32,000 nt of DNA from Geobacter sulfurreducens PCA (GCF_000007985.2 NC_002939.5:1590001-1622000), one strand, 5' to 3'. Shown: positions 1,201 through 25,066, counted from the first letter of the stretch. The notes: generated from the sequence alone by a model not told the origin. Program-made: numbers and translations.

Positions 1201-1206
1201 GGCTTC

Positions 1207-1236
1207 AGTTAAACAGGAATCTTCAGGGATTGTCAA
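1207..1236 (-). promoter_or_regulatory. Candidate sigma70 promoter for rlmD (TTGACA-18-TTAACT)
   Basis: On the reverse strand TTGACA is the complement of 1231-1236 and TTAACT the complement of 1207-1212. The -10 matches consensus at only 3/6 positions and ends 6 nt before the ATG. Confidence 0.3.
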
Positions 1237-1269
1237 TGACTCAGGCCGGTGGATGAACAGTGGTTTGAG

Positions 1270-1298
1270 TTGCATCCTGAGAAGAATTTTACTAATAT
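1270..1298 (+). promoter_or_regulatory. Candidate sigma70 promoter of the polysaccharide operon (TTGCAT-17-TAATAT)
   Basis: TTGCAT at 1270-1275, an exact 17-nt spacer, TAATAT at 1293-1298. It sits about 48 nt upstream of the ATG at 1347 in the AT-rich divergent intergenic region. Confidence 0.55.
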
Positions 1299-1346
1299 TT
1301 TCAATTTTTCCATGCAACGGCTAGCAGTTCAGGGGGCATCTGAGAC

Positions 1347-2459
1347 ATGGTCGAGCTTTACTTGCATCTGCTAACTACCGGCATGATCAGGGATTTCATC
1401 GTTGCGGTGAATATCCTGCTCTTTGTCGTCACACTCGGTCTTTTCCTGACCCTTTTGTTTCACAAGGTTTACGTGGAGAGGCGCACCCGCCGCCTTGCTG
1501 CTCTCAAGGAGCGGTATCTCGAAGAGCTGACGCACAAATGCTATGAACCAACCCTTGCGATCCCGAAGCCGACCACGGCACTGGAGTACGATGCTCTTGG
1601 CGCCGTGTTTGCCACGATGCTCGTGAACGTCTCCGGCGCCATGGCCGCCAGCGTGCGATGCTTCATCCGCGAACTGGGCATTGATGCCTATTACCGGGCT
1701 CGCGTCCGGTCCCGCTCGTGGGTGAAGAGGTATGTGGCGGTCGAGAAACTCGGCTATTTCGGCTTTCCCGAGCTGAAGCCCCTGTTTCGTTCACTGCTCG
1801 ATACCGAGAGGGATACGCGGATCATTCCCAAGCTCGTCTGGGCTCTCAGCGTGATTGCCGACCGTGACGACGTGCCATTCATCAATCGCGTCCTGAAAGA
1901 TCCCCTGTTCATGTCAGCCAAGTTCAACGAATATATTTACACGAATATTATTCGTGCGTTCCGTGAGCGGGATCAGGAGCAGGAACTGCTGGAACTGTTC
2001 ACATTTCTCATGGACGACGAAGCGCTGCCGGTCATTCTCAAGCGGGATATCATCCAGGCGTGCGGCAGCGAGATGTTCCTCATCGCCAAGGATCTTGCAG
2101 CTGACTGCTTCCGCCGCTTCCACGAAGTGGCCGAGATGCGGATCGCCTGCATTCGCACTCTGCAGCGTTTTTCGGCGGTGGACACGGAGGTGCTTCTGAG
2201 CGAATGCCTCCGGGATACCGATTGGCGAATCAGAGGCGTTGCCGCCAAGAGTGCCCACCTTTACTCCCCGGCAGTCGTGGGTTCATTGCGGCAGCTGCTC
2301 CACGACGAAAGCTACCACGTGCGGATTAATTCCGCACTCTCTCTCTCCAGAATGGGAGAGGCGGGGCTCGAAGTCCTCGTGGATGCAACCCGGAGCGAGG
2401 ACCGGTTCGTGCGCGATGTTTCTCAATACGTGCTGAAGAGGCTCATCTATGCTTCATAA
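1347..2459 (+). CDS. Membrane-anchored HEAT-repeat (PBS-lyase HEAT-like) protein, first gene of the polysaccharide operon
   Basis: 370-aa ORF. It has an N-terminal hydrophobic helix (IRDFIVAVNILLFVVTLGLFLTLLF) followed by RRTRR. Repeated HEAT-like units include SWVKRYVAVEKLGYFG, DWRIRGVAAKSAH, SYHVRINSALSLSRMGEAG and DRFVRDVSQYVLKRL. Its stop overlaps the next start by 11 nt. Confidence 0.8.
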   Translation: MVELYLHLLTTGMIRDFIVAVNILLFVVTLGLFLTLLFHKVYVERRTRRLAALKERYLEELTHKCYEPTLAIPKPTTALEYDALGAVFATMLVNVSGAMAASVRCFIRELGIDAYYRARVRSRSWVKRYVAVEKLGYFGFPELKPLFRSLLDTERDTRIIPKLVWALSVIADRDDVPFINRVLKDPLFMSAKFNEYIYTNIIRAFRERDQEQELLELFTFLMDDEALPVILKRDIIQACGSEMFLIAKDLAADCFRRFHEVAEMRIACIRTLQRFSAVDTEVLLSECLRDTDWRIRGVAAKSAHLYSPAVVGSLRQLLHDESYHVRINSALSLSRMGEAGLEVLVDATRSEDRFVRDVSQYVLKRLIYAS

Positions 2460-3867
2460 CATCGTTGCCTTCCTGCTGGCGATCCAGCCGGTGATCTTCA
2501 TTTATTTCATCGTGCTGAACGGGTTCTACACCCTGTTCACCATCATCTCCCTGCGTGACATCCGCAACTATCTGAATGCCGTCACGAGCCAGAGCATCGA
2601 CAACGTGCTCAACGGGATGTTCTATCGGCCCCTGTCTATCCTCGTGCCCGCCTACAACGAGGAAAAGACCATCGTTTCCTCGGTGAAGTCGCTGCTCGCC
2701 CTGCGGTATCCCGAGTACGAAGTCATCGTCATCAACGACGGGTCCACCGACGGCACTCTTGAAAGTCTCATCAACGAATTCCGTCTTGTCCGGATCGACA
2801 AGCCCATCAGCCTGCATGTTCCCCATCGGCCGATCATTGCCAAGTACGTTTCCGTCGACCATCCCTACCTCTTCGTGCTGGACAAGGAGAACGGCGGCAA
2901 GGCCGATGCCCTCAACGCGGGGATAAACGCTTCCCAGTTTCCCCTGTTCTGCTCGATCGATGCCGACTCCGTGCTTGAGGACGATGCGCTCATCCGTGCG
3001 ACGCGGCTTTTCGTGGAAGACCGGGAGGTCGTTGCCACCGGCGGTATCGTGCGGGTCCTTAACGGTTGCGAGGTGGAGGACGGCATCGTCAAGGGGGTCC
3101 GCGCTCCCCGGGGGATGCTGGAGTGCTTCCAGACTGTGGAGTACACCAAGGGGTTCCTCTCGGGGCGGACATCGTGGAATTACTTCAGGAGCTTGCTGAT
3201 CATCTCGGGCGCCTTCGGCATCTTCCGCAAGGACATGGTGATGGCCGTCAAAGGGTACCGCGAGAGCGTGGGCGAGGACATGGACTTGGTGGTGCGGCTC
3301 CACCGCCATTGCCGCCAGAACCGGATTCGCTACAAGGTAGTGTTTGTGCCCGATCCTGTCTGTTGGACCCAGGTTCCTTCGGATATGGCATCGCTCCTCA
3401 AACAGCGCAATCGCTGGCACCGTGGCCTCATTGACAGCCTTTGGCACAACAGGGGCATGTTCCTCAACCCCCGCTACGGTACGGTCGGACTGTTCGGGTT
3501 CCCCTATTTTGTTACGGTTGAACTACTCGGGCCGGCAGTTGAATTTATTGGCTATTTCGGCTTCGTGCTTCTCTTTTTCCTGGGTCAGGTGAATCGCGAG
3601 TTTGCAATTCTCTTTTTCCTCCTGGCTGTTCTCTGGGGAACTTGGATTAATCTCGGCTCCATCTTTCTCGATAACCTCATTTACAAGCGCTACAAGGGGT
3701 TGGGCGACGTCCTGAAGCTTTGCCTCTTCGGTCTACTCGAATTTTTCGGGTACCGGCAGATCATCGTGGTTGAACGGCTCATCGCCACGTTCATGTTCTG
3801 GAAAAAGGGGTGGGGCAAGCCCAAGCGAAAGGAGATCGATGGTGAAGTGTCTGGTTCGGTTGCCTAG
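2449..3867 (+). CDS. Processive family-2 glycosyltransferase (PgaC/IcaA/NodC-like polysaccharide synthase)
   Basis: 472-aa ORF with N- and C-terminal TM helices. GT2 synthase motifs are PAYNEE, VINDGSTDGT, the DxD motif SIDADS, GAFGIFRK, GEDMDL and the QxxRW motif QRNRWHRG. Confidence 0.9.
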   Translation: MLHNIVAFLLAIQPVIFIYFIVLNGFYTLFTIISLRDIRNYLNAVTSQSIDNVLNGMFYRPLSILVPAYNEEKTIVSSVKSLLALRYPEYEVIVINDGSTDGTLESLINEFRLVRIDKPISLHVPHRPIIAKYVSVDHPYLFVLDKENGGKADALNAGINASQFPLFCSIDADSVLEDDALIRATRLFVEDREVVATGGIVRVLNGCEVEDGIVKGVRAPRGMLECFQTVEYTKGFLSGRTSWNYFRSLLIISGAFGIFRKDMVMAVKGYRESVGEDMDLVVRLHRHCRQNRIRYKVVFVPDPVCWTQVPSDMASLLKQRNRWHRGLIDSLWHNRGMFLNPRYGTVGLFGFPYFVTVELLGPAVEFIGYFGFVLLFFLGQVNREFAILFFLLAVLWGTWINLGSIFLDNLIYKRYKGLGDVLKLCLFGLLEFFGYRQIIVVERLIATFMFWKKGWGKPKRKEIDGEVSGSVA

Positions 3868-4036
3868 CAGGATACTCTATCTGGTGCCGCGGGTGCTGCT
3901 CCTGGCCCTGTTCCTGACCTACGTGACGTTCATGCTCCTGTCTTCCTATGAATGGTTCCGTCCCGTGGAGGTGGCCGTCCAGGGGGCACTGGCGAAACTG
4001 GTGCAGGGTGCGGCCGGCTTGTGGAGCAGGCTATGA
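3839..4036 (+). CDS. Small (65 aa) single-pass membrane protein. It is either a PgaD/IcaD-like synthase accessory or the detached signal-anchor of the next gene.
   Basis: Internal ATG of ORF 3770..4036, preceded by AAGGAG at 3829-3834. The product is MVKCLVRLPSRILYLVPRVLLLALFLTYVTFMLLSSYEWF... It overlaps the GT2 3' end by 29 nt, and its TGA (4034-4036) overlaps the next ATG (4033-4035) as ATGA. Confidence 0.5.
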   Translation: MVKCLVRLPSRILYLVPRVLLLALFLTYVTFMLLSSYEWFRPVEVAVQGALAKLVQGAAGLWSRL

Positions 4037-6450
4037 CGGGCAAGCCGCTGACCGACTATGTGGCTCTCGGATTCACGGCCCTGGAACGGGGCGACTGCCA
4101 GGAGGCGGTCAACATCTTCCGTCGGGCCCAGGAGACGGGACCGACTGCCCGGAGTTTCGTGGGGCTCGGCCTTGCCTTTCACCGGCTCGGCGATCCGCCG
4201 GCAGCCCGCTGGGCCTTTGCCAAGGCCCTCGACCTGGAGCCTGCCGACCGGGATGCCAACGAGTGGATCGAACGGATCGGCAGACCTGCCGTGCCGGCGC
4301 GGACCAGCGGGGGCCGCGGATGCCGTTTCCGGGCCGGTGAGGATTTCCTGCAGATCAAGGAGAATGGTTCCTGGCGCAGGTTCTTCATCAAGGGAATCAA
4401 CCTGGGGCTGGGCCTGCCGGGGTACTTCCCGGGCGAGTACCCTATTCACCGGGAGACCTATCGCCGGTGGTTCCGGCTCATGGGAGAGCTGGGGGTGAAC
4501 TCGCTACGGGTCTACGCGGTGCAGTCCCCTGGATTCTACGAAGCGCTGGCCGATCATAACGAGCAGGGGGGACGGCTTTTCCTCTTTCAGGGAATCTGGC
4601 TGGAGCTGCCCGAAGATGGCGATTTCCGCGGCCGGGACTTTCTGGCGTATGCCCATCGGCAGATTCGCGAGGCGGTGGACTCGGTCTGCGGCAGTGCCGA
4701 CTTCCCCGAGCGCCCCGGCCTGCCCCACGGTTCCTACCGCCGCGACGTTTCCCCCTGGACTGCCGCCTATGTGGTCGGCCGTGAATGGGAAAGCTGCGCG
4801 GTACGCGCTTTCAACGGGCGCTACGGCCGCAAGCGGGGCGGTTTTGCCGGCCAGTTCCTGAAGGTTGACGACGGGCTCCCCTTTGAGCAATGGGCCGCCG
4901 AGATCTGCGACTACCTCCAATCCTACGAGCATGCCACCTATGACTGCACCCATCCGGTAACCACCATCAACTGGCCGACACTGGACCCCCTGACCCATCC
5001 GTCGGAGTCCACCTACGAAGAGGGGCTCATTCGCCAGGGTTTCCAGGTGAACGTGGACGTCTGCAATGAGGACGAGGACGTGGAGACCTTTGATCCCGCG
5101 CTCATCGCCTCGCGGCAAGGGGCGGGGTTCTTTGCCACCTATCACGTCTATCCCTACTATCCCGATTTTCTCAACAACGACTTCCTGGATGTCGAAAACC
5201 CCTACCGGGAGTACCTGAAGCGGCTCAGACGCCACCATGGTCGACAGCCTGTGGTTATCGCCGAGTTCGGGGTGCCGTCGAGCCGTGAGGCAACTCACTG
5301 GCAGCGAGATGGCTGGCATCATGGCGGTCATGACGAGGTCTCCCAAGGGAAAATCAATGGTTACATGATGGAGGCCATCCGCGACGCGGGGCTGGCCGGG
5401 GGGATGCTGTTCAGCTGGTTTGACGAGTGGTTCAAGCGAAACTGGGTCTTTCTTCCCTATGAACTCCCGGCCGAACGCAACCCCTTTTGGTTCAATCACC
5501 AGGATGCCGAGCAGACCTACGGCCTCATGGCCGCCTATCCCGGTTATCCCGGCAAGGTCGTGACCCTGGCCGGACGACGTGAAGAATGGCGTGACGCCTC
5601 GCTCCTCCAGGAGAAGAGGGGAGGCGCCCCCCTGCACCGTTTCGGCGACGGCCGCGACGGGGCGCGAACCCTCGTGCGGCTTTCAGCGCGGCACGATGAG
5701 GGATTTTTCTATCTCTGCCTCGAAACGGCCGAACCGGTCGATTTCAGCGCGGCCCACTACCTGATTGGCCTCAATACCTGTGGGGCGAAGGCGGGGGAGA
5801 CGCTTCTCCCCTTCGACACCAACGCCCGAAGCCCGCTGGGGCTCACCTTCCTGATCCATCTGGCCGGCGAGGGCGCGAGCCGCATCCTGGTAAGCCGTTT
5901 CTACGACAAATATCTCAATGAGGGACTGCCGGTCCGCCCCGTGCCGTCCGATACGGGAGAGTGGGTGGTCATGCAGAACATCACCAACCACCGCCGCATC
6001 AGCAAGGACGGCACCCGGTTCTACCCCTCCCGGGTCTTCTCCATGAGCGGGCTGCGCTTCGGCAGCCTCGATCCGCAAAGTCCCCGCTTCGACTCCCTGG
6101 CCGACTGGCATGTCTCGGGCACTCTGATTGAGCTTCGGCTGCCCTGGGGGCTCCTGAACATCACCGACCCCAGTTCCCGGCAGGTCCTCTGGATGGCGGA
6201 ACAAGGGGGCAAGACCCACACCACCGACGGCATTGCCGCCATCGCGTGTTCTTATCGCCCGTCGGGCGAGGGGCTCGCCGCCCGTCCCACGGGCGGGCGG
6301 ACAAATCTGGCCGATTCCTTGCCCGCCGGTCTCGGCTCTGATGCCGTCCGACGCTATCAATGGGAGAGGTGGAACCACCCCCTGTACCACACCTATCTCA
6401 AGCGGAGCTACTACCTCTACCGGGATGTACTCGACCGGATGCCGGAGTGA
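4033..6450 (+). CDS. TPR-repeat protein fused to a TIM-barrel glycoside-hydrolase-like domain and a C-terminal beta-rich (carbohydrate-binding-like) region
   Basis: ORF 3952..6450. I prefer the ATG at 4033 because GGAG lies at 4023-4026 and the ATGA coupling fits. The N-terminus is TPR-like (YVALGFTALERGDCQEAVNIFRRAQE...AFHRLGDPPAARWAFAKALDLEP). It is followed by GVNSLRVYAV, LFLFQGIWLE, VVIAEFGVPSS and MLFSWFDEWFKRNW, which resemble clan GH-A barrels. No signal peptide is visible at either start. Confidence 0.75.
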   Translation: MTGKPLTDYVALGFTALERGDCQEAVNIFRRAQETGPTARSFVGLGLAFHRLGDPPAARWAFAKALDLEPADRDANEWIERIGRPAVPARTSGGRGCRFRAGEDFLQIKENGSWRRFFIKGINLGLGLPGYFPGEYPIHRETYRRWFRLMGELGVNSLRVYAVQSPGFYEALADHNEQGGRLFLFQGIWLELPEDGDFRGRDFLAYAHRQIREAVDSVCGSADFPERPGLPHGSYRRDVSPWTAAYVVGREWESCAVRAFNGRYGRKRGGFAGQFLKVDDGLPFEQWAAEICDYLQSYEHATYDCTHPVTTINWPTLDPLTHPSESTYEEGLIRQGFQVNVDVCNEDEDVETFDPALIASRQGAGFFATYHVYPYYPDFLNNDFLDVENPYREYLKRLRRHHGRQPVVIAEFGVPSSREATHWQRDGWHHGGHDEVSQGKINGYMMEAIRDAGLAGGMLFSWFDEWFKRNWVFLPYELPAERNPFWFNHQDAEQTYGLMAAYPGYPGKVVTLAGRREEWRDASLLQEKRGGAPLHRFGDGRDGARTLVRLSARHDEGFFYLCLETAEPVDFSAAHYLIGLNTCGAKAGETLLPFDTNARSPLGLTFLIHLAGEGASRILVSRFYDKYLNEGLPVRPVPSDTGEWVVMQNITNHRRISKDGTRFYPSRVFSMSGLRFGSLDPQSPRFDSLADWHVSGTLIELRLPWGLLNITDPSSRQVLWMAEQGGKTHTTDGIAAIACSYRPSGEGLAARPTGGRTNLADSLPAGLGSDAVRRYQWERWNHPLYHTYLKRSYYLYRDVLDRMPE

Positions 6451-6454
6451 TGCC

Positions 6455-7222
6455 GTGAACGTGAGCCGCAGACAATTTCTGATCATCGGGGGAGCTGCGC
6501 TGGCAGCCATGGCCGTCCCACTGCCGGTCTCGGCCCGGAAGGACACGGTGGTGCCGGTGCTCATGTACCACGATGTCTCCAACCATTTCCACGATCCCTT
6601 TACCATCTCACCCGCGCTCTTTGCCGCCCACATGGAGTGGCTCCATGCTGCCGGCTACCGGGCCGTGACGGTGGGGGAAGCCCTGGCCGGGCGGGGAGCC
6701 ACTGCCGGCAAAATGGTGGTTATCACGTTTGACGACGGCTATGCCTCGTTTCTGGACTATGTCCATCCGCTTCTGCTTCAGTATGGCTTCTCGGCCGCAA
6801 TTTCGGTCATCGGCAGTCATGTGGGGACCTGGCTGGAGCGGGATGGCCGCCGGCCCATGCTGAGCTGGGACGAGTATCGCTATCTGGCGGCGCGGCGAGT
6901 GGAGGTAGGGTGCCATGCCTATCATCTCCACGCCATCGAGCGGTTGCGGCATGCCTCGGCCGACGAATTGGCTGAAGATCTGGAGCTCTTTCAGAAGACC
7001 ATGGCGCGGGAGATGGGGCGGCGGGCTACGCTTCTGGCCTGGCCCTACGGAATCTACACGTCCGAGCGGGTTCAGATTGCCCGGCAGGCCGGATTTGTGC
7101 ACATTCTTACCTCCAACGAGGGATATGTGGATGACGGCACCGATCCGGGGGCGATCCCGCGGCTCAATATCGATAATCGGCTTGACCTTGTTTCGTTCAG
7201 TAATTATCTCAGGGGGGAATGA
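6455..7222 (+). CDS. Polysaccharide deacetylase (carbohydrate esterase family 4, PgaB/IcaB-like) with a twin-arginine signal peptide
   Basis: GTG at 6455 (or 6461) within ORF 6233..7222. The Tat motif is SRRQFLIIGGAALAAMAVPLPVSA. CE4 motifs are VLMYHDV, VVITFDDGY, GCHAYHLH and LLAWPYG. The 5' part of the ORF-track call overlaps the preceding gene and is rejected. Confidence 0.85.
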   Translation: MNVSRRQFLIIGGAALAAMAVPLPVSARKDTVVPVLMYHDVSNHFHDPFTISPALFAAHMEWLHAAGYRAVTVGEALAGRGATAGKMVVITFDDGYASFLDYVHPLLLQYGFSAAISVIGSHVGTWLERDGRRPMLSWDEYRYLAARRVEVGCHAYHLHAIERLRHASADELAEDLELFQKTMAREMGRRATLLAWPYGIYTSERVQIARQAGFVHILTSNEGYVDDGTDPGAIPRLNIDNRLDLVSFSNYLRGE

Positions 7223-7225
7223 AGA

Positions 7226-8800
7226 ATGACGAAGACGATCATCCCGGCAGTCATGCTCGTGGTGATGCCCTGTGCGGCACTGGCTTCGGCGCCAGCCGAC
7301 CTGTTCCGGGGCGGGAAGATAGACGAGGCGGTGACAGCCTATCGCGCCACCATCGGCCAAGCCTCCGCGGCACGGGAAAAGGCGATGCTCCACAAGGAGT
7401 TGGGCGATCTGTACGCAGAAAAAGATCAGTATGCCGAAGCAGCTGATGAGTACGTCGCGGCTCTGGCGCTCGACCACGGCTTTCCAACGACTGAACGGAT
7501 CAGGATGGCAGTGGCCGTTTCGTGGGCCAACCGGCTGGACGATGCGATCTTCGCGTTGCGCGCCGTGGTTGCCGACGAACCGGACAACACCACTGCCCGG
7601 ACCCATCTGGCCCGAACCCTGTCCTGGCGTGGTGATCAGCCCGATGCCATTGCCGAGGCCGATCGTGTCCTAGCAGCTCGACCCGGAGACCGGGATGCGC
7701 TTCTGGTCAAGGCAAACGCCCTCCGTTGGCAGGGTAACAGTAGCCAGGCCCTGCCGCTCTACCAACAGATCCTGGCGGGGAGTGACGACTTCGATACCCG
7801 CCTGGGTCTTGCCTTTGCCCAGCTCCAGACCGGCAACAAGCAGGAGGCAACCGCCAATGCCGCCATCCTCAAGCCCCGATTCCCCTACCAGGAGCGGGAC
7901 TTGAAGAGACTCCGGGAGGAAATCGAAAATACCACCGCTAATACGGTCGAGGCGTCATACACTCGCTACGGTGATTCGGACGACAACAAGGCGGACCGTT
8001 TCGGCGTTGCCTACACCCATCGCCAGGGTGACTGGAGCCTCTCCGGTTCCTACCGCCACTTCACGGTAAACGATACCGTCGGCGACACCTATGCCGACAT
8101 CCTCGATGCGGGCGGTTATCTGCGCCTGGCCGGCCGCTACGGTGTCGGCGCCGGTATCGGCGTGGCTCGTTTGGACAGCGGCTCATCCGACATGAACCTG
8201 ACCTGGCGCCTCAACGCCGACGCCGATGTAGCGCGAGGCGGTGTAAGTCTTTCCCTGCGCAAGGACGTTCTCACCGACACCGCATCCCTGGTGGAGAACC
8301 GGATCAGATACCTCTCCGCCGGCATCAGCGCCAGCCAGCGCATCACCCAGCGCTTTACCCTGTTCGGCGGTTACTCCTGGCGCGACTACTCCGACGACAA
8401 CAGCGCCCATGACCTGCTTATCGCTCCGTCCTATACCCTCTACACCGGCGACCCCACGGTGCGGACCGGCTACCGCTTCCGATACCTCAATTTCGACCGC
8501 CAGAGCTTCGGCGGCTATTTCGATCCGAACGACTTCATATCTCACCAGCTTTTTGTCTCCGTCGACTGGCAACTCGACCGCATCTTCCTCTATGCGGAGC
8601 CCTATGGCGGATTCCAGTCCTTCGACCGCTACGGCGATCACACCGACGATATCTTCGGCGGCTTCAGCGGCACCCTCGGCTACCGCTTTACCAAGCGCCT
8701 CACGGGTGAGGTGAACGGGGAGCTCGGCAACTACGCCCTCGGCGCCACCTCCGGTTTCGAGTACTACTCCGTCGGAACCCGCTTCGCCTATTCCTTCTGA
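7226..8800 (+). CDS. Outer-membrane TPR + beta-barrel polysaccharide export porin (PgaA/BcsC-like architecture)
   Basis: 524-aa ORF. The signal peptide is [22 protein letters not shown]. It has N-terminal TPRs. The C-terminal half has alternating aromatic/Gly beta-strand patterns and ends in the OMP-type terminal ...RFAYSF. Confidence 0.8.
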
Positions 8801-8815
8801 TCAGCCGGCTGAACA

Positions 8816-8843
8816 TGCCCCGTTCGGACCTCCGGACGGGGCA
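8816..8843 (+). terminator. Hairpin terminator after the polysaccharide operon
   Basis: TGCCCCGTTCGG-ACCT-CCGGACGGGGCA forms a 12-bp stem including one G:U pair, followed by CGATTTC. It lies 16 nt after the stop at 8800. Confidence 0.6.
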
Positions 8844-8850
8844 CGATTTC

Positions 8851-8880
8851 TTGACTTTTCGCCGAATGTCCGGCTACTAT
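8851..8880 (+). promoter_or_regulatory. Candidate sigma70 promoter of ispG (TTGACT-18-TACTAT)
   Basis: TTGACT at 8851-8856 and TACTAT at 8875-8880. The -10 ends 8 nt before the ispG ATG at 8889. Confidence 0.4.
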
Positions 8881-8888
8881 GCCCCGTT

Positions 8889-9950
8889 ATGAAAGCCAAG
8901 ACGAGACAGATCCGAGTGGGGAACGTACCGGTGGGCGGCGATGCGCCCTGCTCGGTGCAATCCATGTGCAATACCGATACGCGGGACGCGGGCGCCACCC
9001 TTGATCAGATCAACGCCCTGGCGGCTGCGGGCTGTGAAATCGTCCGCTGCGCCGTCCCCGACATGGCCGCTGCCGAGGCCTTGGGCGCCATCAAGCGCCA
9101 AAGCCCCATCCCGGTTATTGCCGACATCCACTTTGACTACAAACTTGCCCTGAAGGTACTGGAGGGGGGAATTGACGGCCTGCGTCTCAATCCCGGCAAT
9201 ATCGGCGAACGGTGGAAGGTGGAAGAGGTTGTAGCAGCGGCCCGGGAACGGCTGGTACCCATCCGCATCGGCGTCAATGCCGGCTCTCTAGAAAAGGAGC
9301 TTCTTCAGAAATACGGCCACCCGACCGCCGAGGCCATGGTCGAGTCGGCCCTTGGCCATGTGCGTATTCTCGAAGAACTCGGCTACGATCAGATCAAGAT
9401 ATCTCTCAAGGCATCGGACGTACCCAAGACGGTGGCGGCTTACCGGCTTCTGGCCCAACGGATCGACTATCCGCTTCACATCGGCATTACCGAAGCGGGC
9501 ACTATGTTCTCCGGAACCATCAAGTCAGCCGTGGGGCTTGGCATCCTGCTTGCCGACGGCATCGGCGATACGCTCCGGGTATCCCTCACGGGTGATCCGG
9601 TGGACGAGGTGCGGGTCGGCTTCGAGATCCTCAAGGCGCTTAATCTCAGACAAAAAGGGATTAATCTTGTCTCCTGCCCCACCTGCGGCCGTTGCCAGAT
9701 CAACCTCATCGGGGTGGCCGAAGAGGTTGAGAAGCGTCTCGCCGGCATCGACGCCCATCTCACCGTGGCGGTCATGGGATGCGTCGTGAACGGACCCGGC
9801 GAGGCCCGCGAGGCCGACGTGGGGATTGCCGGCGGACGGGGCGAGGGGCTCCTGTTCCGCAACGGGGAAATCGTCCGCAAGGTGCCGGAGGCCGACATGG
9901 CCGATGCGCTGATTGCGGAAGTCGAAAAGATACTCGCTGAAAAACACTAA
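8889..9950 (+). CDS. ispG: 4-hydroxy-3-methylbut-2-en-1-yl diphosphate synthase (MEP pathway)
   Basis: 353 aa. The N-terminus [28 protein letters not shown] matches the conserved IspG/GcpE N-terminus. The C-terminal Fe-S ligands are SCPTCGRC ... GCVVNGPGE. Confidence 0.95.
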
Positions 9951-13293: not shown

Positions 13294-13380
13294 TGGTGCC
13301 GGAGGTCGGAATCGAACCGACACGGGGTTGCCCCCGGCGGATTTTGAGTCCGCTGCGTCTACCAGTTTCACCACTCCGGC
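13294..13380 (-). tRNA. tRNA-Leu (anticodon CAA), class II with long variable arm, CCA encoded
   Basis: The reverse complement reads GCCGGAGTGGTGAAACTGGTAGACGCAGCGGACTCAAAATCCGCCGGGGGCAACCCCGTGTCGGTTCGATTCCGACCTCCGGCACCA. The anticodon loop is CT-CAA-AA, the T-loop is GGTTCGATTCC, and the length is 87 nt. Confidence 0.93.
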
Positions 13381-13504: not shown

Positions 13505-13580
<76 letters not shown>

Positions 13581-15542: not shown

Positions 15543-16232
15543 ATGAAGGTCCGTGCCGGCATTTCCGCACTTGTGACCATTGCGGTTCTTGCGGGGTGCG
15601 CCTCACACCTGCCGGTCTACCGGATTGATGCTCTCGCCAGGCTTTCTGCTGTAAAGATGATGGGGGCGGAGAAGTATGCACCTCCGGAGTTGGCTAGTCT
15701 TCAACAGGCCATTGTCGATGGGGACGCGCTCATGCAGAGTGGTGAGCATGAGCTGGCCGACAGCTATTATCTGCTGGCCATTCGCAAAAGCGAGGCCGTG
15801 GAGCGGAGCATCGCCCGTGAGCGTGAACATGAACGGGCGATGCAGGTGCGGAGCGAGAACGAGCGGCTTGCTCGTGAGCGCCAGAAGGCACTCGAAGAAC
15901 TGAAACGCGAACTTGCGGAAAAGGAAAAGGAAGAGAAAAAGCGAATCGAAAGAGCTCCTCAGCCTGTCCGTGACAAGGAGAAAGAAAAAGAGGTCAGGTC
16001 GTTTCCGCTCCACCATACGGTAAAGCGTGGCGAAAGCCTTCCGCAAATCGCCGCACAGCCTGACGTTTACGGCGATGCAGCGCTCTGGCCTCTCTTGTAC
16101 CGTGCCAACCGCGATCAGATACGTGACCCTGGTAGAATATGGCCTGGACAGGTACTCAGAATTCCTCGAAATATCTCACGTGATGACCTCGCGGAGGCAA
16201 GGCGTTACGCGCAGGAGCGACCAGCGCCCTGA
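15543..16232 (+). CDS. Lipoprotein with a Lys/Glu-rich coiled-coil region and a C-terminal LysM peptidoglycan-binding domain
   Basis: 229 aa. The lipobox is VLAGC. The charged stretch is ERLARERQKALEELKRELAEKEKEEKKRIE. The LysM-like C-terminus is HHTVKRGESLPQIAAQPDVYGDAALWPLLYRANRDQIRDPGRIWPGQVLRIP. Confidence 0.8.
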   Translation: MKVRAGISALVTIAVLAGCASHLPVYRIDALARLSAVKMMGAEKYAPPELASLQQAIVDGDALMQSGEHELADSYYLLAIRKSEAVERSIAREREHERAMQVRSENERLARERQKALEELKRELAEKEKEEKKRIERAPQPVRDKEKEKEVRSFPLHHTVKRGESLPQIAAQPDVYGDAALWPLLYRANRDQIRDPGRIWPGQVLRIPRNISRDDLAEARRYAQERPAP

Positions 16233-16516: not shown

Positions 16517-18757
<2,241 letters not shown>

Positions 18758-18785
18758 TGACGTAGGAAGTACACATATCTGCTAA

Positions 18786-19754
<969 letters not shown>

Positions 19755-19779
19755 GGTGTTGTTACCCATGACGCAGCAA

Positions 19780-19811
19780 GGCAAAGAAGGGCCCTGTGCC
19801 CTTCTTTTGCC
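19780..19811 (+). terminator. Hairpin terminator after mdh
   Basis: GGCAAAGAAGGGC-CCTGT-GCCCTTCTTTTGCC forms a 13-bp stem with a 1-nt bulge. The T-run lies inside the descending arm. Confidence 0.7.
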
Positions 19812-19865
19812 TTATGGGGGGAGTTGACGTAGTCCGGTCGGTTCCCAATTGAGAAGATATGAGAG

Positions 19866-19894
19866 TTGAAGTTGTATACAGTATGTGCTATATA
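19866..19894 (+). promoter_or_regulatory. Candidate sigma70 promoter of korDABC (TTGAAG-17-TATATA) with a TTGTATAC-type operator filling the spacer
   Basis: TTGAAG at 19866-19871 and TATATA at 19889-19894. The spacer at 19872-19888 is TTGTATAC-A-GTATGTGC, which matches the icd palindrome at 12 of 16 arm positions. Confidence 0.55.
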
Positions 19895-19948
19895 CGTATG
19901 CAATTTTGTGCCGGTAACGGCCCCACTTCAGTAAAGGAGCGTATCTAG

Positions 19949-20143
19949 ATGGAAAAACAGCTTCCAACGATTGAGATCATTGAGAAGTACTGCAAGGGGT
20001 GTCACATCTGTGTTGAGTTCTGCCCCACAAAGGTACTGGAGATGAAAGGGTTCGTCGTGGCGGTAAAGAACCTTGAAGCTTGCATCAAGTGCATGCAGTG
20101 CGAACTGCGGTGTCCCGATTTCGCCATTAAGGTGACCCCTTAA
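19949..20143 (+). CDS. korD: 2-oxoacid:ferredoxin oxidoreductase delta subunit (2x[4Fe-4S] ferredoxin)
   Basis: 64 aa with two CxxCxxCxxxCP motifs (CKGCHICVEFCP and CIKCMQCELRCP). Confidence 0.9.
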   Translation: MEKQLPTIEIIEKYCKGCHICVEFCPTKVLEMKGFVVAVKNLEACIKCMQCELRCPDFAIKVTP

Positions 20144-20166
20144 CTATTCTCGAGGAGGTAAGTGAC

Positions 20167-21300
20167 GTGGCAAAAAAAGTAGCATTTTTACAGGGTAACG
20201 AAGCGGCCGCGCATGGCGCCATATACGCTGGGTGCAAATTCTTCGGTGGTTACCCGATCACTCCGTCGACCGAGGTCGCCGAGGTGATGTCGGCAGAACT
20301 TCCCAAGGTGGGTGGCAAGTTCATTCAGATGGAAGACGAAATCGGAGCCATGGCCGCCATCATCGGTGCCTCCTTGACCGGTGTCAAGGTCCTCACCGCA
20401 ACTTCGGGCCCCGGACTTTCCCTCAAGCAGGAAAACATCGGTTATGCATGCATCACCGAAGTGCCCTGCGTTATTGTTGACGTAATGCGTGGCGGTCCTT
20501 CCACCGGTATGCCTACCGGTCCTTCCCAGTCGGACATCATGTGTGCCAAGTGGGGAACTCACGGAGACCATGCCACCATCGCGCTCATGCCCGCGTCGGT
20601 TCAGGAATGCTTTGAAATGACCGTCAAGGCGTTCAACCTTGCCGAGAAATACCGCGTACCCGTTTTCGTCATGCCCGACGAGATAGTTGGTCACATGCGC
20701 GAGCGTATTGAGTTCCCCGAACCGGGCGAACTGGAGGTGATCGATCGTGCTGCTCCGACCGTGCCGCCCGAGCAGTACAAGCCCTATGATACCCAGTTCG
20801 GCGATGTGCCTCCCCTTGCTGCGTTCGGGTCCGACTACCGTTTCCACGTGACCGGTCTCAACAAGATGGCGGATGGTTTCCCCACCACCAAGGCTGCAAT
20901 CGTTCAGGCCGAGGAAGAGCGCCAGGTACGCAAGGTTGAAGCAAACAAGAACGAAATCATGGAATGGGAAGAGTTCATGTGTGAGGACGCCGACGTGATC
21001 GTCGTCGCCTTCGGCTCGACCTCCCGGTCCGCACGTTTTGCCGTGAACGAGGCCCGTAAGGAAGGCATCAAGGCGGGTCTTTTCCGTCTCAAGACCTTCT
21101 GGCCGTTCCCCGAGGAGCGGATGCTCGAACTTTCCAAAAAGGTAAAGGCCTTCATTACCCCCGAGATGAGCCTTGGTATGTGCAATGGCGTCGTCAAGGG
21201 GTGCATCGAAGGCAACGCTCCTGTCCTCGGTATTTATCACGTGGATGGCGAACCGGTAAATCCCGGCGAAATCCTCAGCAAGATTAAGGAGGTCAAGTAA
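20167..21300 (+). CDS. korA: 2-oxoglutarate:ferredoxin oxidoreductase alpha subunit
   Basis: GTG start with GAGGAGG 9 nt upstream, 377 aa. Contains GNEAAAHGAIYAGCKFFGGYPITPSTE. Substrate assignment rests on the icd/mdh context, not on sequence alone. Confidence 0.85.
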   Translation: MAKKVAFLQGNEAAAHGAIYAGCKFFGGYPITPSTEVAEVMSAELPKVGGKFIQMEDEIGAMAAIIGASLTGVKVLTATSGPGLSLKQENIGYACITEVPCVIVDVMRGGPSTGMPTGPSQSDIMCAKWGTHGDHATIALMPASVQECFEMTVKAFNLAEKYRVPVFVMPDEIVGHMRERIEFPEPGELEVIDRAAPTVPPEQYKPYDTQFGDVPPLAAFGSDYRFHVTGLNKMADGFPTTKAAIVQAEEERQVRKVEANKNEIMEWEEFMCEDADVIVVAFGSTSRSARFAVNEARKEGIKAGLFRLKTFWPFPEERMLELSKKVKAFITPEMSLGMCNGVVKGCIEGNAPVLGIYHVDGEPVNPGEILSKIKEVK

Positions 21301-21302
21301 TA

Positions 21303-22124
21303 ATGGCTTTCAATTATGAGAAATACATCCGTCCGGGGAAACTGCCTCATATCTGGTGCCCCGGCTGTGGTCACGGCATCGTCATGAAGGGTCTCATCAG
21401 GGCGATGGATACACTCGGTCTCGAGAAGAACAATACGGCGATCGTCTCCGGTATCGGTTGTGCCTCCCGTCTTCCCGGATACATGGACTGCTGCACCCTC
21501 CACACCGCACACGGTCGCGCTGCTGCGTTCGCCACCGGCGTAAAGCTGTCTAAGCCGGAAATGACAGTCTTCTGCGTCGGCGGTGATGGAGACGGCGTTG
21601 CTATCGGCGGCAACCACTTCATCCATGCCTGCCGTCGCAACATTGACATGACGTACATTTTGATGAACAACAAAATCTACGGCATGACCGGCGGGCAGTT
21701 CTCGCCGGCTACCCCGCACATGGCGAAAGCTTCCACCACCCCCTATGGCAACCCCGACCCGTCTTTCGACATCGCCAAGCTTGCCATTGGTGCCGGTGCA
21801 ACCTTCGTGGCCCGTGGTACTGCGTTCCACGCCAACCAGATCGACAAGCTGATTGTCGAAGCCGTACAGCACAAGGGGATGTCGGTTGTTGAAATCCTTG
21901 ACGACTGCCCCACCTGCTTCGGCCGTCGGAACAAGTACCGGTCGGTTGTCGAGATGATGAACCATCTCAAGGAAGTTGCCGTACCGGTCAAGGCCGCTGA
22001 GAAGATGACGCCCGAGCAGCTTCAGGGCAAGGTTCTCACGGGCGTTCTGTACAAGGAAGACAAACCCGAGTACTGCGAAGAGTATCGGAAAGTCATCGAG
22101 CGCGCCCAGGGCGGTGCCAAGTAA
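21303..22124 (+). CDS. korB: 2-oxoglutarate:ferredoxin oxidoreductase beta subunit (TPP-binding)
   Basis: 273 aa. Contains WCPGCGHG, and a TPP motif GGDGDGVAIGGNHFIHACRRNIDMTYILMNNKIYGMTGGQ. Confidence 0.88.
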   Translation: MAFNYEKYIRPGKLPHIWCPGCGHGIVMKGLIRAMDTLGLEKNNTAIVSGIGCASRLPGYMDCCTLHTAHGRAAAFATGVKLSKPEMTVFCVGGDGDGVAIGGNHFIHACRRNIDMTYILMNNKIYGMTGGQFSPATPHMAKASTTPYGNPDPSFDIAKLAIGAGATFVARGTAFHANQIDKLIVEAVQHKGMSVVEILDDCPTCFGRRNKYRSVVEMMNHLKEVAVPVKAAEKMTPEQLQGKVLTGVLYKEDKPEYCEEYRKVIERAQGGAK

Positions 22125-22806: not shown

Positions 22807-22853
22807 GTACGCTAAATGACGGTGCGTTGACCTTTCTTGCCAGGAGTCCTGCC

Positions 22854-24029
22854 ATGACGCTGGAGCTCTGCAGATTGTCGTTGCAGCAGACGCAGGAACT
22901 CCTGAGGCTCACTGATGCCACGCTCAAGAACATATGCTCTCGCAGGTTTTCCGGTGAGGAACTCTACTCCGAGGCGATACGGCGGGTTCTCGGTGGTGGC
23001 GGCAAGCGGGGACCGGAAAGTATTTTTCTCCTCATTGACGGCATTGGTGGTACGAGCAGAGGATGGATCTTTCAGCTCCAAGCAGGAGAGTTGGTAAGAA
23101 GTTCAGATGAAATTCTCGTAGATGCCGACTCGGTTTATTCACTGGGCCGCCTCGGTAGCGAGGTTCTCGTGTCGAACTGGCGTGAGAGCTTCGAGTCGAT
23201 TGAGCGCTATCAGGTAATCTTTCATCCCGACATTGTCAAACATATAGCAAAGCCTATCAGGAACTTTGTCGCATGTCAGATCAGCGGCGAGAGTAATGGT
23301 GCGCTCCTTGCATTTAATTACGCTGGGGAAGCCACAGAGTACGACGGCGATGTGCTTCGCGGACTGTCGGTTGTCATTGGCTCCCTTGTCACGCTGTCGG
23401 TGATGGTTCGCGAAACCGAGCACGCCTTCATTTACACCATCGAGGCATTGGCCCGGGCGTGCGAGGCGGCCGAGGAGAGCACGGGTGATCATATTGTACG
23501 GGTAAATCGCTATGCCGGAGCCCTTGCCGCCCATATGGATCTCTCTCCCGACTTTGTCGAGGTGATTTCCTATTCAGCCCAGATGCACGACGTGGGGAAG
23601 ATTCGGGTTCCGACGGCTATCCTCCTGAAGCCCGGCCCCCTTGATGAGGCTGAAGAACGGGTTATGCGCCTTCACCCGGAATTCGGGGAGCAGATTCTGG
23701 GTGATTCTCCCCGTCTGAGCGTGGCACGGGAGATTGCTCTGAGTCATCATGAGAATTGGGATGGAAGCGGGTATCCCCGAGGCTTGCAGGGTGAAGCCAT
23801 TCCGCTGGCCGGTAGAATCGTGAAGCTTGCGGATGTCTATGATGCACTCCGTTCCAGGCGCAGTTATAAAAAGGCCTTGAGCCACGCAGAAGCGCGCGCT
23901 GTCTTCTTGAACGGCGATGAGCGGATCACGCCACGCAGTCATTTCGACCCTCGGGTTCTTGAGACGTTCTTTCGCATAGAGCCTCTCTTTGAGCGAATCT
24001 ACCAGAGTTCGCGCAACCAGCAAGTATAG
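22854..24029 (+). CDS. HD-GYP domain cyclic-dinucleotide phosphodiesterase with an N-terminal GAF-like sensor region
   Basis: ATG at 22854 (AGGAG at 22842-22846) within ORF 22827..24029. The HD motif is SAQMHDVGKI, the HHExxDGxGYP motif is SHHENWDGSGYPRGL, and KLADVYDAL follows. The sensory domain spans about 190 aa and is not identifiable by eye beyond a GAF-like size. Confidence 0.88.
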   Translation: MTLELCRLSLQQTQELLRLTDATLKNICSRRFSGEELYSEAIRRVLGGGGKRGPESIFLLIDGIGGTSRGWIFQLQAGELVRSSDEILVDADSVYSLGRLGSEVLVSNWRESFESIERYQVIFHPDIVKHIAKPIRNFVACQISGESNGALLAFNYAGEATEYDGDVLRGLSVVIGSLVTLSVMVRETEHAFIYTIEALARACEAAEESTGDHIVRVNRYAGALAAHMDLSPDFVEVISYSAQMHDVGKIRVPTAILLKPGPLDEAEERVMRLHPEFGEQILGDSPRLSVAREIALSHHENWDGSGYPRGLQGEAIPLAGRIVKLADVYDALRSRRSYKKALSHAEARAVFLNGDERITPRSHFDPRVLETFFRIEPLFERIYQSSRNQQV

Positions 24030-24103
24030 GGCGGCGTTGCTGTTCATGTGGGCCGCACGTGCATTTTTTACCTTGAAACTTTAGCATGACAAAGGAGATC
24101 GGA

Positions 24104-25066
24104 ATGTTTCTTCTTCCCAAAGGGAATCCGTTGTACGAGAACATTGCGGCGTCCAAGGTCAAGATCCCCGACATGTTTGAGAAGCTGAAAAGCAGCTCTT
24201 TCACCGGCTATCTCAGCTTTACGTTTCCTTCCTCTATTGCAATTTTCTTTTTTGAGGCCGGAAAGCTGATCAGTGCCATGCTGGAGCATGACGGAAAGAG
24301 GCTGACCGGCTTCGAAGCTATTGCCGGCGTATGTACCCAGATTTTTGGCGGCGGCGGTGCCTTGAGTGTGTACAAGCTTTCCAAAGATCTCACCATGTGT
24401 CTCCATGCGATGCTTCATGGCGATGTGCTGTACCAGGGGCAGGAACTCAAGCTGATCGACATCAAGGGCTTGCTCGAAAAGATGAAAGCTCAGCGCCTCA
24501 ACGGCTGTTTGAGGATATATACCGAGGACCGGACAGCCCTTATCTTTTACAAGGAAGGGGCACCCCTCGGTTTTTTCCATGATGGTTCCCACGATATAGA
24601 GACATCTGCTTCTGAGTCCCAGAAAATTGCCGGCCTGCCCGGTTCCAAAATTGATGTTTTGTCGACCAAGAGTGCTGAAGAGCTCATGCATTACGACCTG
24701 TTGGAAATGGTCAACATCGCCAAGCTCTGGGAGTCGACCACGGCTCGCTTTTCCTCGGAGCGGGAAAAGATCCGGAAAGAAGCGGAGGTTGTTGGTCAGC
24801 AGCATGCAGATGACGCATTGAAGGAGCTTGAAGACGACCTCAAGGAAGTAGCCATGGCCTATGTCGGTAAAATGGGGGCTTCGCTCGTTGAGAAGGAACT
24901 GAATGACCGCGGTGGACGTCGTGCCCTCACAGAGGGTTCCCAGGTTGGTGCATTCCTTGCCGGTGTGGAGAAGGGGGCAAAGCTCCTGACCAGCATATCC
25001 AAAACCAGGGAGATGCTGGAGACCATGAAAAACGAGATCGCAGAACGGACGAAATCACTGCTGTGA
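24104..25066 (+). CDS. Protein with two tandem DUF4388 (PATAN-like) repeats and a charged helical C-terminal domain; function unknown
   Basis: I prefer the ATG at 24104 (AAGGAG at 24092-24097, 6-nt spacing) over 24086. Repeat 1 is IPDMFEKLKSSSFTGYLSFTFPSSIAIFFFEAGKLISA. Repeat 2 is IKGLLEKMKAQRLNGCLRIYTEDRTALIFYKEGAPLGF. The DUF4388 assignment is from memory of the family consensus. Confidence 0.7.
   Translation: MFLLPKGNPLYENIAASKVKIPDMFEKLKSSSFTGYLSFTFPSSIAIFFFEAGKLISAMLEHDGKRLTGFEAIAGVCTQIFGGGGALSVYKLSKDLTMCLHAMLHGDVLYQGQELKLIDIKGLLEKMKAQRLNGCLRIYTEDRTALIFYKEGAPLGFFHDGSHDIETSASESQKIAGLPGSKIDVLSTKSAEELMHYDLLEMVNIAKLWESTTARFSSEREKIRKEAEVVGQQHADDALKELEDDLKEVAMAYVGKMGASLVEKELNDRGGRRALTEGSQVGAFLAGVEKGAKLLTSISKTREMLETMKNEIAERTKSLL

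Follow-up and report, generated by a model that had tools for sequence, protein, structure and literature searches.

A predicted synthase-dependent exopolysaccharide operon of Geobacter sulfurreducens that combines a HEAT-repeat membrane protein with a putative clan GH-A hydrolase

INTRODUCTION

Cellulose, alginate, poly-N-acetylglucosamine (PNAG), and Pel are the best-understood routes to a biofilm matrix, and the list is treated as nearly closed. Here we describe the genes GSU1453 to GSU1458 of Geobacter sulfurreducens PCA, which lie in a 32,000-nucleotide (nt) stretch of genomic DNA (GCF_000007985.2; NC_002939.5:1590001-1622000) that we call the window. The six genes form one operon, and their products very probably make up a synthase-dependent exopolysaccharide (EPS) machine. 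They include a synthase of glycosyltransferase family 2 (GT2), a deacetylase of carbohydrate esterase family 4 (CE4), and a predicted porin with tetratricopeptide repeats (TPRs). Two further products, a HEAT-repeat membrane protein and a TPR protein with a putative glycosidase barrel, are the new parts of the machine: a conserved synthase subunit and a hydrolase-like protein without a sequence family in Pfam, NCBIfam, or the PDB.

PgaABCD, HmsHFRS, and BpsABCD resemble the locus in having a membrane GT2, a periplasmic CE4 enzyme and glycoside hydrolase, and a porin built of TPRs and a β-barrel. However, Pga has PgaD, which binds cyclic di-GMP (c-di-GMP) together with PgaC, whereas the conserved partner here is the HEAT membrane protein. 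PgaB is a lipoprotein with CE4 as its N-terminal domain and a PNAG hydrolase as its C-terminal one; here the two are separate proteins, and the CE4 protein carries a twin-arginine translocation (Tat)-type signal. The putative hydrolase combines TPRs with a clan GH-A barrel rather than the PgaB C-terminal domain, and where relatives of this system fuse hydrolase and CE4, the domain order (hydrolase, then CE4) is the reverse of that in PgaB. The porin here, with 524 amino acids (aa), is shorter than the NCBIfam PgaA model, which has 800 positions.

IcaADBC shares with the locus a stand-alone IcaB-like CE4 enzyme and a small membrane open reading frame (ORF) after the synthase gene, as icaD. It differs in that the locus has no IcaC but does have a porin, a TPR hydrolase, and a HEAT protein, and in that its small ORF is confined to Geobacter. 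Pel is similar in its TPR porin (PelB), its periplasmic hydrolase and deacetylase (PelA), and its helical-repeat inner-membrane accessories. However, the Pel synthase PelF belongs to GT4 and the c-di-GMP receptor is PelD, whereas the synthase here is a GT2 and no PelD-like domain was detected. Beyond a marginal TPR match to PelB (E = 0.8), Pel has no sequence similarity to this operon.

An initial annotation, made from the sequence, had described the locus as matching no named layout. None of the six proteins qualified as PgaC, PgaB, PgaA, or PgaD, which agrees with that description. The signatures of Bcs (BcsA-PilZ and BcsB), Pel (PelF of GT4, and PelD), and Alg (Alg8 and Alg44) are likewise absent, and neither a PilZ nor a GT4 domain was found. 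General family searches listed no match to NfrB, NfrA, or MshEN for the six proteins, the presence of NfrA and NfrB models in the collections being unchecked.

We found no paper that names or characterizes this operon or that discusses GSU1453 to GSU1458 in its main text. Searches on Geobacter with PNAG or pgaC, and on HEAT proteins with synthase-dependent systems, gave nothing relevant. Apparent mentions of "pgaC" in Geobacter papers were actually the plasmid name pGacA, and a gsu1771 RNA-seq paper concerns other polysaccharide clusters. In its accessible part, the survey of Bundalovic-Torma (2020) reports that environmental Gram-negative bacteria hold divergent, IcaB-like clades of "pgaB" and lists a different two-gene PgaB/PgaC locus for G. 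metallireducens, with no entry for this operon.

RESULTS

The operon encodes the parts of a synthase-dependent machine. The initial annotation had proposed such a machine, and a processive GT2, a deacetylase, a glycosidase-fold protein, and a TPR/porin protein are all supported by our analysis. GSU1454 carries the full set of processive motifs (NDGSTD, SIDADS, GEDMDL, and QRNRWHRG), and these are conserved in relatives; D97, D171/D173, E276/D277, and Q319-R320-x-R322-W323 are invariant in 11 of them. Transmembrane (TM) segments lie at both ends. The protein therefore has the feature that defines the synthase-dependent class, a membrane-embedded GT2 with TM helices on either side and the motifs D, DxD, (T/G)ED, and QxxRW, and the positive-inside rule places its catalytic domain in the cytoplasm. 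The GT2 family profile aligns with BcsA, HAS, and chitin synthase from the catalytic to the membrane region, and GSU1454 groups with these processive synthases. A nonprocessive grouping had been named in the initial annotation as a reason to abandon the idea, and this result removes it. An identical copy of the GSU1454 protein is encoded in the G. sulfurreducens genome CP002031.1, among others.

GSU1457 is a 255-aa protein that matches the Pfam family Polysacc_deac_1 (PF01522) at 72.9 bits (cut-off, 23.1) and, as annotated, stands apart from the hydrolase. Its ITFDDG and HAYHLH motifs align with those of PgaB and place it in the PgaB/IcaB subgroup of CE4. The TFDDG and WPYG motifs listed earlier are present, but the histidine motif aligns with PgaB as HxxxxH and not as the HxxxH first described. 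GSU1458 has a hydrophobic N terminus that reads as a Sec signal peptide, followed by a TPR scaffold (residues ~25 to 220; several Pfam TPR families), and it ends in YSF as previously noted. Its β-barrel is predicted from a weak PgaA match and the conserved C-terminal phenylalanine; a PDB profile search gave TPR matches only.

GSU1453 was annotated as a HEAT-repeat membrane protein that heads the operon, and its sequence bears this out. It matches Pfam HEAT_2 (E = 1.2e-19) and has an N-terminal hydrophobic segment (residues 8 to 44) followed by ERRTRR. Because a single N-terminal TM helix precedes basic residues, the positive-inside rule predicts that the HEAT solenoid is cytoplasmic.

GSU1456 is a putative glycosidase with a conserved active site. 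An AlphaFold2 model of this 805-aa protein, built from a 120-sequence alignment, had a predicted local distance difference test score (pLDDT) of 93 and a predicted template modeling score (pTM) of 0.93. In the model, a short TPR region (residues ~9 to 82) is followed by a clan GH-A (β/α)8 barrel and C-terminal β-sandwiches. Foldseek pointed to such a barrel, in line with the TPR-fused, glycosidase-like barrel of the initial annotation. The best matches belong to clan GH-A at about 12% identity, with E values down to 7.5e-14: a GH157 endo-β-1,3-glucanase at the top, GH2 glucuronidases and galactosidases, and a GH5 mannanase. PgaB was not among the top 50 fold matches and did not match by sequence either.

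Both 120 close and 19 distant relatives keep the same active-site residues: R159, E251 (strand 4), H371/Y373 (strand 6), E411 (strand 7), and E465/W466 (strand 8). E251 follows strand 243-248 and E411 lies within strand 407-412, as expected of clan GH-A. The model thus presents GSU1456 as a glycosidase-fold protein with the expected active site and as a putative hydrolase. At the level of predicted fold and active site, it would be the cognate polymer-cleaving enzyme of the operon. Outside the TPR region it had no sequence or profile match in Pfam, NCBIfam, or the PDB, and the PDB searches returned only designed and natural TPR proteins.

A HEAT-GT2-hydrolase core is conserved across phyla. 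Relatives of GSU1456 are widespread. There are at least 1,642 homologues in a protein collection clustered at 90% identity; at 50% identity, 527 cluster representatives reach E ≤ 1e-30. Of the first 600 pattern-matching stretches from species-representative genomes, 598 encode one, which puts the count at 598 species genomes or more. We compared the neighborhoods of 80 such loci, 17 with a hydrolase 45 to 60% identical to GSU1456 (group A) and 63 with one 33 to 40% identical (group B). Group A includes Geobacteraceae, Nitrospirota, Binatia, Abyssobacteria, Deferrimicrobium, and Sulfuricurvum. The co-occurrence search suggested with the initial annotation found the same colinear block in other phyla: all 17 group-A loci keep the order HEAT, GT2, hydrolase, CE4, porin. 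Group B includes Acidobacteriota, Gemmatimonadota, Cyanobacteria, Treponemataceae, Gammaproteobacteria, and Vulcanimicrobiota. About half of the group-B loci with full flanks have HEAT and GT2 genes nearby, often with a porin-like TPR protein, and none of the 63 has a CE4 gene within 8 kb of the hydrolase. The operon arrangement is far beyond chance.

All 43 loci that have both genes place HEAT immediately upstream of GT2, in the same orientation. Pfam confirmed the HEAT identity in Nitrospirota, Binatia, Sulfuricurvum, Paenibacillus, and Vulcanimicrobiota. Of the cluster's proteins, the hydrolase is conserved best: its identity across phyla is about 55%, whereas that of the GT2 is about 40% and that of the HEAT protein about 20%. 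By gene order, the HEAT protein, rather than the 65-aa product of GSU1455, is the predicted conserved partner of the synthase; scaffold, regulator, and nucleotide receptor are candidate roles. In Paenibacillus selenitireducens (L083, 4971-6320), a gene for a GGDEF and receiver-domain (REC) protein lies immediately upstream of the HEAT-GT2-hydrolase genes, which hints at c-di-GMP control of the module in that lineage.

The 65-aa TM ORF annotated after the synthase gene is present, but GSU1455 does not qualify as a conserved PgaD-like partner. It has a single TM helix, no family match in Pfam or NCBIfam, and no transposon phenotype. Relatives with a YLVPR motif and a TM helix occur in G. pickeringii (L087) and a Geobacteraceae metagenome-assembled genome (MAG; L007). 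None was found in L088 or in any other phylum among the loci compared, where there is no room for it; the gap between the GT2 and hydrolase genes is below about 60 nt where measured (Nitrospirota L008 to L010). GSU1455 is therefore read, from its distribution, as an accessory restricted to the Geobacter lineage. We also considered whether the ORF and the hydrolase gene are one gene with a signal anchor, split by a frameshift. This was rejected as a general explanation because, outside Geobacter (the window, L087, and L007), no group-A locus with an intact junction has such an ORF.

The core proteins also occur as fusions. A Treponemataceae MAG (L034, 1605-12014) encodes a HEAT-GT2 fusion of 1,021 aa. 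Single proteins join GT2 with hydrolase (P0274) or hydrolase with HEAT (P0285), hydrolase-TPR/porin-like fusions reach 1,400 to 1,500 aa, and hydrolase-CE4 fusions account for at least eight cluster representatives, which come from MAGs of Cloacimonadota and Bacteroidales. The Treponemataceae locus has two paralogous hydrolases (1,060 and 897 aa), the second with a lipoprotein-like signal. Another MAG (CAZBWV010000019.1; L089, 4944-13207) encodes a GT2, a TPR/porin-like protein, a hydrolase-CE4 fusion (1,120 aa), and a second CE4 protein (612 aa); upstream of its GT2 gene is a Big_7-domain protein, and no HEAT gene was called there. In a Thermodesulfovibrionales MAG (L033, 3741-7349), the hydrolase is extended at its C terminus by about 350 aa that match nothing in Pfam or the PDB. 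We tested whether this extension is a hidden CE4 domain, and it is not.

The smallest version is a three-gene module of hydrolase, HEAT, and GT2, found on a Deinococcus radiophilus plasmid and on a Planococcus maritimus plasmid (NZ_CP059541.1; L094, 3000-10435). The GT2 proteins of the two plasmids are 40 to 44% identical to GSU1454. The Planococcus trio matches the window at E = 4e-27 for the hydrolase, E = 4e-7 for HEAT, and 40% identity (E = 3e-107) for the GT2, and it lies beside VTC, DUF4956, and CotH genes. Its gene order and protein sizes match those of NELoc-2, a necrotic-enteritis-associated locus of Clostridium perfringens. There, CP4_0466 to CP4_0468 encode a hypothetical protein (685 aa), a HEAT protein (377 aa), and a GT2 called "chitin synthase" (466 aa), and the locus also has a CotH protein of 497 aa (PMC2879425, Table 4). 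Homology with NELoc-2 is proposed from synteny and sizes. This monoderm version differs from the Geobacter operon in having no porin and, in the Planococcus copy, no CE4 gene, and in its link to CotH kinase and VTC/polyphosphate-polymerase genes. NELoc-2, itself uncharacterized, is the only trace of the core module that we found in the literature.

The signal-less hydrolase is paired with a deacetylase that has a predicted Tat signal. GSU1456 lacks a signal peptide and is free of hydrophobic 19-mers along its whole length, which the initial annotation had overlooked. The same holds in group A, where 15 of the 15 hydrolases with an intact N terminus lack a hydrophobic one. In all 17 group-A loci, the next gene, 4 to 15 nt downstream, encodes a CE4 protein with an N-terminal (S/T)-R-R-x-F-L-K motif. 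The N terminus of GSU1457 is SRRQFLIIGGAALAAMAVPLPVSA, in which the twin-arginine motif SRRQFLI is followed by a hydrophobic region and VSA. We re-examined the pattern in five further loci, from two Geobacter relatives and three genomes with a hydrolase 40 to 44% identical to GSU1456. The prediction that a signal-less hydrolase is adjacent to a Tat-signal CE4 protein held in all five (motifs TRRQFM, NRRQFI, SRRELIK, HRREFLK, and KRREFLY). Altogether, a signal-less hydrolase gene is directly followed by an RR-motif CE4 gene in 22/22 loci.

Elsewhere in the family, the hydrolase carries its own targeting signal. Among group-B hydrolases whose N terminus is intact, a Sec signal peptide or a lipobox is nearly universal. 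The hydrolase-CE4 fusions carry a membrane anchor at the N terminus, and signal anchors are present in the proteins from Deinococcus and Planococcus. These signals argue that the family works outside the cytoplasm. Some proteins cross the Tat system as hitch-hikers: in HybO/HybC of hydrogenase-2 and in DmsA/DmsB, one subunit has a twin-arginine signal, the partner has none, and the genes are adjacent, as are those of GSU1456 and GSU1457. Tat components exist in G. sulfurreducens (tatB is GSU0022).

We consider it an evenly balanced proposal that GSU1456 rides with GSU1457 through Tat. In this scenario, the two proteins would fold and associate in the cytoplasm and then cross together. The pair would be a noncovalent, order-inverted counterpart of the two-domain PgaB, with a nonhomologous hydrolase. 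Known Tat hitch-hikers are cofactor-loaded redox enzymes, whereas a hydrolase/deacetylase pair, known here from its genes, would be a new kind of cargo; such a new use of Tat co-export is probable on the comparative pattern.

The strongest alternative, although an unlikely one, is that GSU1456 in group-A organisms stays in the cytoplasm and acts with HEAT and GT2 at the cytoplasmic face of the membrane, for instance by priming, by setting chain length, or by regulating synthesis; the Tat signal of the CE4 protein would then be unrelated. This would fit the lack of any signal peptide or hydrophobic segment, the predicted cytoplasmic location of the HEAT and GT2 catalytic domains, and the existence of hydrolase-GT2 and hydrolase-HEAT fusions. 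There is also a precedent in cyclic β-1,2-glucan synthase, in which cytoplasmic GH-like domains control chain length. However, almost all group-B relatives whose N terminus is intact have Sec signals, lipoboxes, or TM anchors, and so do the fusions and the proteins from Deinococcus and Planococcus. The fusions to CE4 and to TPR/porin-like domains place the family with periplasmic partners, and 22/22 loci pair a signal-less hydrolase with a Tat-signal CE4 protein.

Transposon insertions in five operon genes give a concordant electrode defect. We used the transposon sequencing (Tn-seq) data of Chan et al. (2017; PMC5585712, Table S2), which give average log2 (electrode/parent) ratios; the authors' threshold was -2. 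GSU1453, GSU1454, GSU1456, GSU1457, and GSU1458 all had negative ratios, GSU1455 had no phenotype (Table 1), and both replicates were concordant. The 44 neighboring nonessential genes (GSU1404 to GSU1452) had a mean of 0.05 and a standard deviation of 0.37. Relative to these, the five operon genes have z values of -3 to -4 (Mann-Whitney p = 6e-6). By the formula of PMC5585712, their apparent doubling times are 11.7 to 12.5 h, compared with 10 h for the parent. The operon genes are not discussed in PMC5585712 because their ratios fall short of the threshold. A defect shared across the block speaks for one functional unit with a part in electrode biofilm growth, and it hints at a matrix-type phenotype.

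Gene structure and surroundings. Reading the ORFs anew gave six same-strand genes and five junctions with exactly the coordinates of the initial annotation (Table 1). The encoded proteins are AAR34827 to AAR34832, and the locus tags agree with the downstream gene order and with the Tn-seq table (Chan et al. 2017, PMC5585712). GSU1455 has an AGGAG Shine-Dalgarno sequence 4 nt upstream of its start. The annotated terminator is real and is the strongest terminator-like site of the region. Both the tight junctions and the terminator after the last gene count in favor of one operon.

Table 1. Features of the window, with the Tn-seq result for each operon gene
Feature	Coordinates	Strand	Remarks	Average log2 (electrode/parent)
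Divergent intergenic region	1202..1346		Between TrmA-family methyltransferase gene GSU1452 (minus strand) and GSU1453	
GSU1453, membrane-anchored HEAT-repeat protein	1347..2459	+	First gene	-1.05
GSU1454, processive GT2 synthase	2449..3867	+	11-nt overlap with GSU1453	-1.26
GSU1455, 65-aa single-TM ORF	3839..4036	+	29-nt overlap with GSU1454	-0.33
GSU1456, 805-aa TPR and glycosidase-barrel protein	4033..6450	+	ATGA overlap with GSU1455	-1.43
GSU1457, CE4 de-N-acetylase	6455..7222	+	GTG start; 4-nt gap after GSU1456	-1.33
GSU1458, TPR and porin protein	7226..8800	+	3-nt gap after GSU1457; C terminus AYSF	-1.14
Intrinsic terminator	8816..8843	+	12-bp stem with 9 G-C pairs, then T-rich tail	
Promoter-like site, TTGACT-18-TACTAT	8851..8880	+	9/12 matches; between operon terminator and ispG	
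tRNA gene	13297..13380	-	Between SpoU methylase gene and aspS	
tRNA gene	13505..13577	+	Between SpoU methylase gene and aspS	
LysM and DUF4398 protein gene	15543..16232	+	Directly after aspS, upstream of icd-mdh-kor	
icd-mdh-kor tricarboxylic acid cycle cluster	16535..22124			
HD-GYP-type (HD_5) gene	22827..24029	+	About 14 kb downstream of the operon	
DUF4388 gene	24086..25066	+	Follows the HD_5 gene	

The operon promoter presumably lies in the divergent intergenic region upstream of GSU1453. However, the "good promoter" annotated at 1270-1298 did not hold up: TTGCAT-17-TAATAT agrees with 7/12 consensus positions, and it was not reported by a promoter scan, which itself found no more sites than in shuffled sequence. 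Cyclic-dinucleotide riboswitches are common in Geobacter. An Rfam search of the window found the two tRNAs only, with no such riboswitch or other element upstream of the operon. The G+C content is 0.54 to 0.57 in the HEAT and GT2 genes versus 0.61 to 0.66 in the hydrolase, CE4, and porin genes (window positions 1001-4000 versus 4001-9000); membrane-protein composition or a mosaic origin could account for this step.

Downstream of the operon lie ispG, proS, pyrF, a SpoU methylase gene, aspS, icd, mdh, and kor, and these genes rule out membership in the Xap polysaccharide cluster (GSU1498-1508). The promoter-like site after the terminator fits separate transcription of ispG. The two tRNA genes are divergent. 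The small LysM and DUF4398 protein probably binds peptidoglycan, and the HD_5 and DUF4388 proteins may be a pair for cyclic-dinucleotide turnover or signaling.

DISCUSSION

The nature of the polymer is approached here through the family scores of its enzymes. The best NCBIfam model for GSU1454 is PgaC_IcaA (TIGR03937), at 125.3 bits and E = 2.9e-36 but below the cut-off of 422.3 bits. The NodC, chitin synthase, and CelA models score 39, 38, and 36 bits, respectively (CelA cut-off, 699). GSU1457 matches PgaB (TIGR03938) at 111.5 bits and E = 3.5e-32 (cut-off, 321.9) and IcaB (TIGR03933) at E = 6e-16; its best PDB matches are PgaB (4U10), IcaB (4WCJ; E = 4.9e-14), and BpsB. GSU1458 matches PgaA (PGA_TPR_OMP, TIGR03939) over residues 116 to 450 at 33.3 bits and E = 1.5e-8 (cut-off, 366.65). 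The BcsC model scores 18 bits (cut-off, 858). By motifs and scores, GSU1454 is predicted to be a processive synthase that is not a PgaC equivalog and that probably belongs to the hexosamine-polymer branch. A partly deacetylated hexosamine polymer is favored slightly above an even balance as the product.

It is unlikely, though several features would suit it, that the product is instead a chitin- or chitosan-like β-1,4-N-acetylglucosamine (GlcNAc) polymer, made by a chitin-synthase/NodC-type GT2, a chitin-deacetylase CE4, and a chitosanase-type GH-A barrel. In Pfam, GSU1454 matches Chitin_synth_2 (residues 293 to 397, E = 1.3e-9) as well as GT2 families, and in its GEDxxL and QRxRW motifs it resembles chitin synthase, NodC, and HAS. 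GH5 chitosanases belong to clan GH-A, and the GT2 in the same gene context in NELoc-2 is annotated as a chitin synthase. Against this stand the scores for GSU1454, which put PgaC_IcaA at 125 bits and the NodC and chitin synthase models below 40, and the CE4 sequence, which is nearer to PgaB and IcaB than to chitin deacetylases.

We find it improbable that the locus is a plain, diverged pgaABCD/hmsHFRS orthologue for poly-β-1,6-GlcNAc in which two genes encode the parts of PgaB and the 65-aa ORF takes the place of PgaD. Among curated families, PgaC_IcaA, PgaB, and PgaA do give the best matches to the GT2, CE4, and porin proteins, the best structures for the CE4 protein are PgaB, IcaB, and BpsB, and the synthase gene has a small TM ORF after it, in the position of pgaD and icaD. 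However, the scores are 3- to 11-fold under the equivalog cut-offs, and the clan GH-A fold of the hydrolase is unrelated in sequence to the PgaB C-terminal domain. The small ORF is confined to Geobacter and has no Tn-seq phenotype, whereas the invariant partner is the HEAT protein, which is absent from pga. The accessible part of the Bundalovic-Torma (2020) survey lists no G. sulfurreducens pga operon.

Least probable of all is a neutral β-glucan (cellulose-like, β-1,3, or mixed linkage) with CE4 as an O-acetyl esterase: the GH157 endo-β-1,3-glucanase as top fold match, the BcsA-matching GT2 profile, and the CE4-less group-B systems would suit it, but CelA scores 36 bits against a cut-off of 699, PilZ and BcsB are missing, the CE4 protein is specifically PgaB/IcaB-like, and fold matches at 12% identity are uninformative on substrate.

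We suggest that an EPS operon working by the following steps, with co-export of GSU1456 and GSU1457, is the best explanation as a whole, and we hold it to be reasonably probable. GSU1454 and GSU1453 would polymerize a UDP-sugar at the inner membrane and thread the chain into the periplasm; UDP-GlcNAc is the likeliest substrate, giving a PNAG-like or chitin-like β-linked polymer. The periplasmic GSU1457 would then strip part of the N-acetyl groups, and the GH-A barrel of GSU1456 would trim or clear the chain, in the manner of cognate hydrolases in other synthase systems. Through their TPR domains, GSU1456 and GSU1458 may pass the chain to the GSU1458 β-barrel for export. Here we infer the substrate, the linkage, the hydrolase activity, and the role of the HEAT protein.

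Several observations weigh against parts of this explanation. Because group B lacks CE4, the core machine does not inherently include deacetylation. The PNAG-family matches are far under their cut-offs (125 versus 422, 111 versus 322, and 33 versus 367 bits), so the polymer need not be PNAG, and the fold relatives of GSU1456 act on β-glucans, glucuronides, and mannans rather than on hexosamine polymers. Searches of the six proteins with Pfam and NCBIfam found no c-di-GMP receptor module (PilZ, degenerate GGDEF, MshEN, or PgaCD type). The Tn-seq defect is modest, short of the -2 threshold, and open to polar effects. As for co-export, the Pfam TAT_signal score of GSU1457 (17.9 bits) is under the 22.7 cut-off. 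Group A may be one clade, in which case the 22/22 correlation could reflect a single ancestral event spread by transfer, and a GSU1456-GSU1457 complex would be a deduction from this comparative pattern.

With these points in mind, we tentatively propose, at somewhat less than even confidence, that HEAT, GT2, and the GH-A hydrolase constitute a distinct, unnamed, multi-phylum class of EPS system. Its hydrolase would found a new GH family, a large clade would use Tat hitch-hiking, and the same module would form the core of NELoc-2 and serve Geobacter electrode biofilms. If this is true, the TPR-porin and CE4 are lineage-specific additions to the core, and the hydrolase/deacetylase pair is the first polysaccharide-processing cargo of Tat hitch-hiking. 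The locus type occurs in hundreds of species of Desulfobacterota, Nitrospirota, Acidobacteriota, Gemmatimonadota, Cyanobacteria, spirochaetes, Deinococcus, and Bacillota. Nevertheless, it has no name, its most conserved protein has no Pfam family, and we found no experimental study of it.

The operon raises the questions of what a HEAT protein does for a processive synthase, what the GH-A protein acts on, and whether Tat co-export builds a PgaB-like pair. If the NELoc-2 synteny reflects true homology, the module would also be tied to a disease-associated locus. G. sulfurreducens is a genetically tractable model of electroactive biofilms, and public Tn-seq data already hint that the operon has a phenotype on electrodes.

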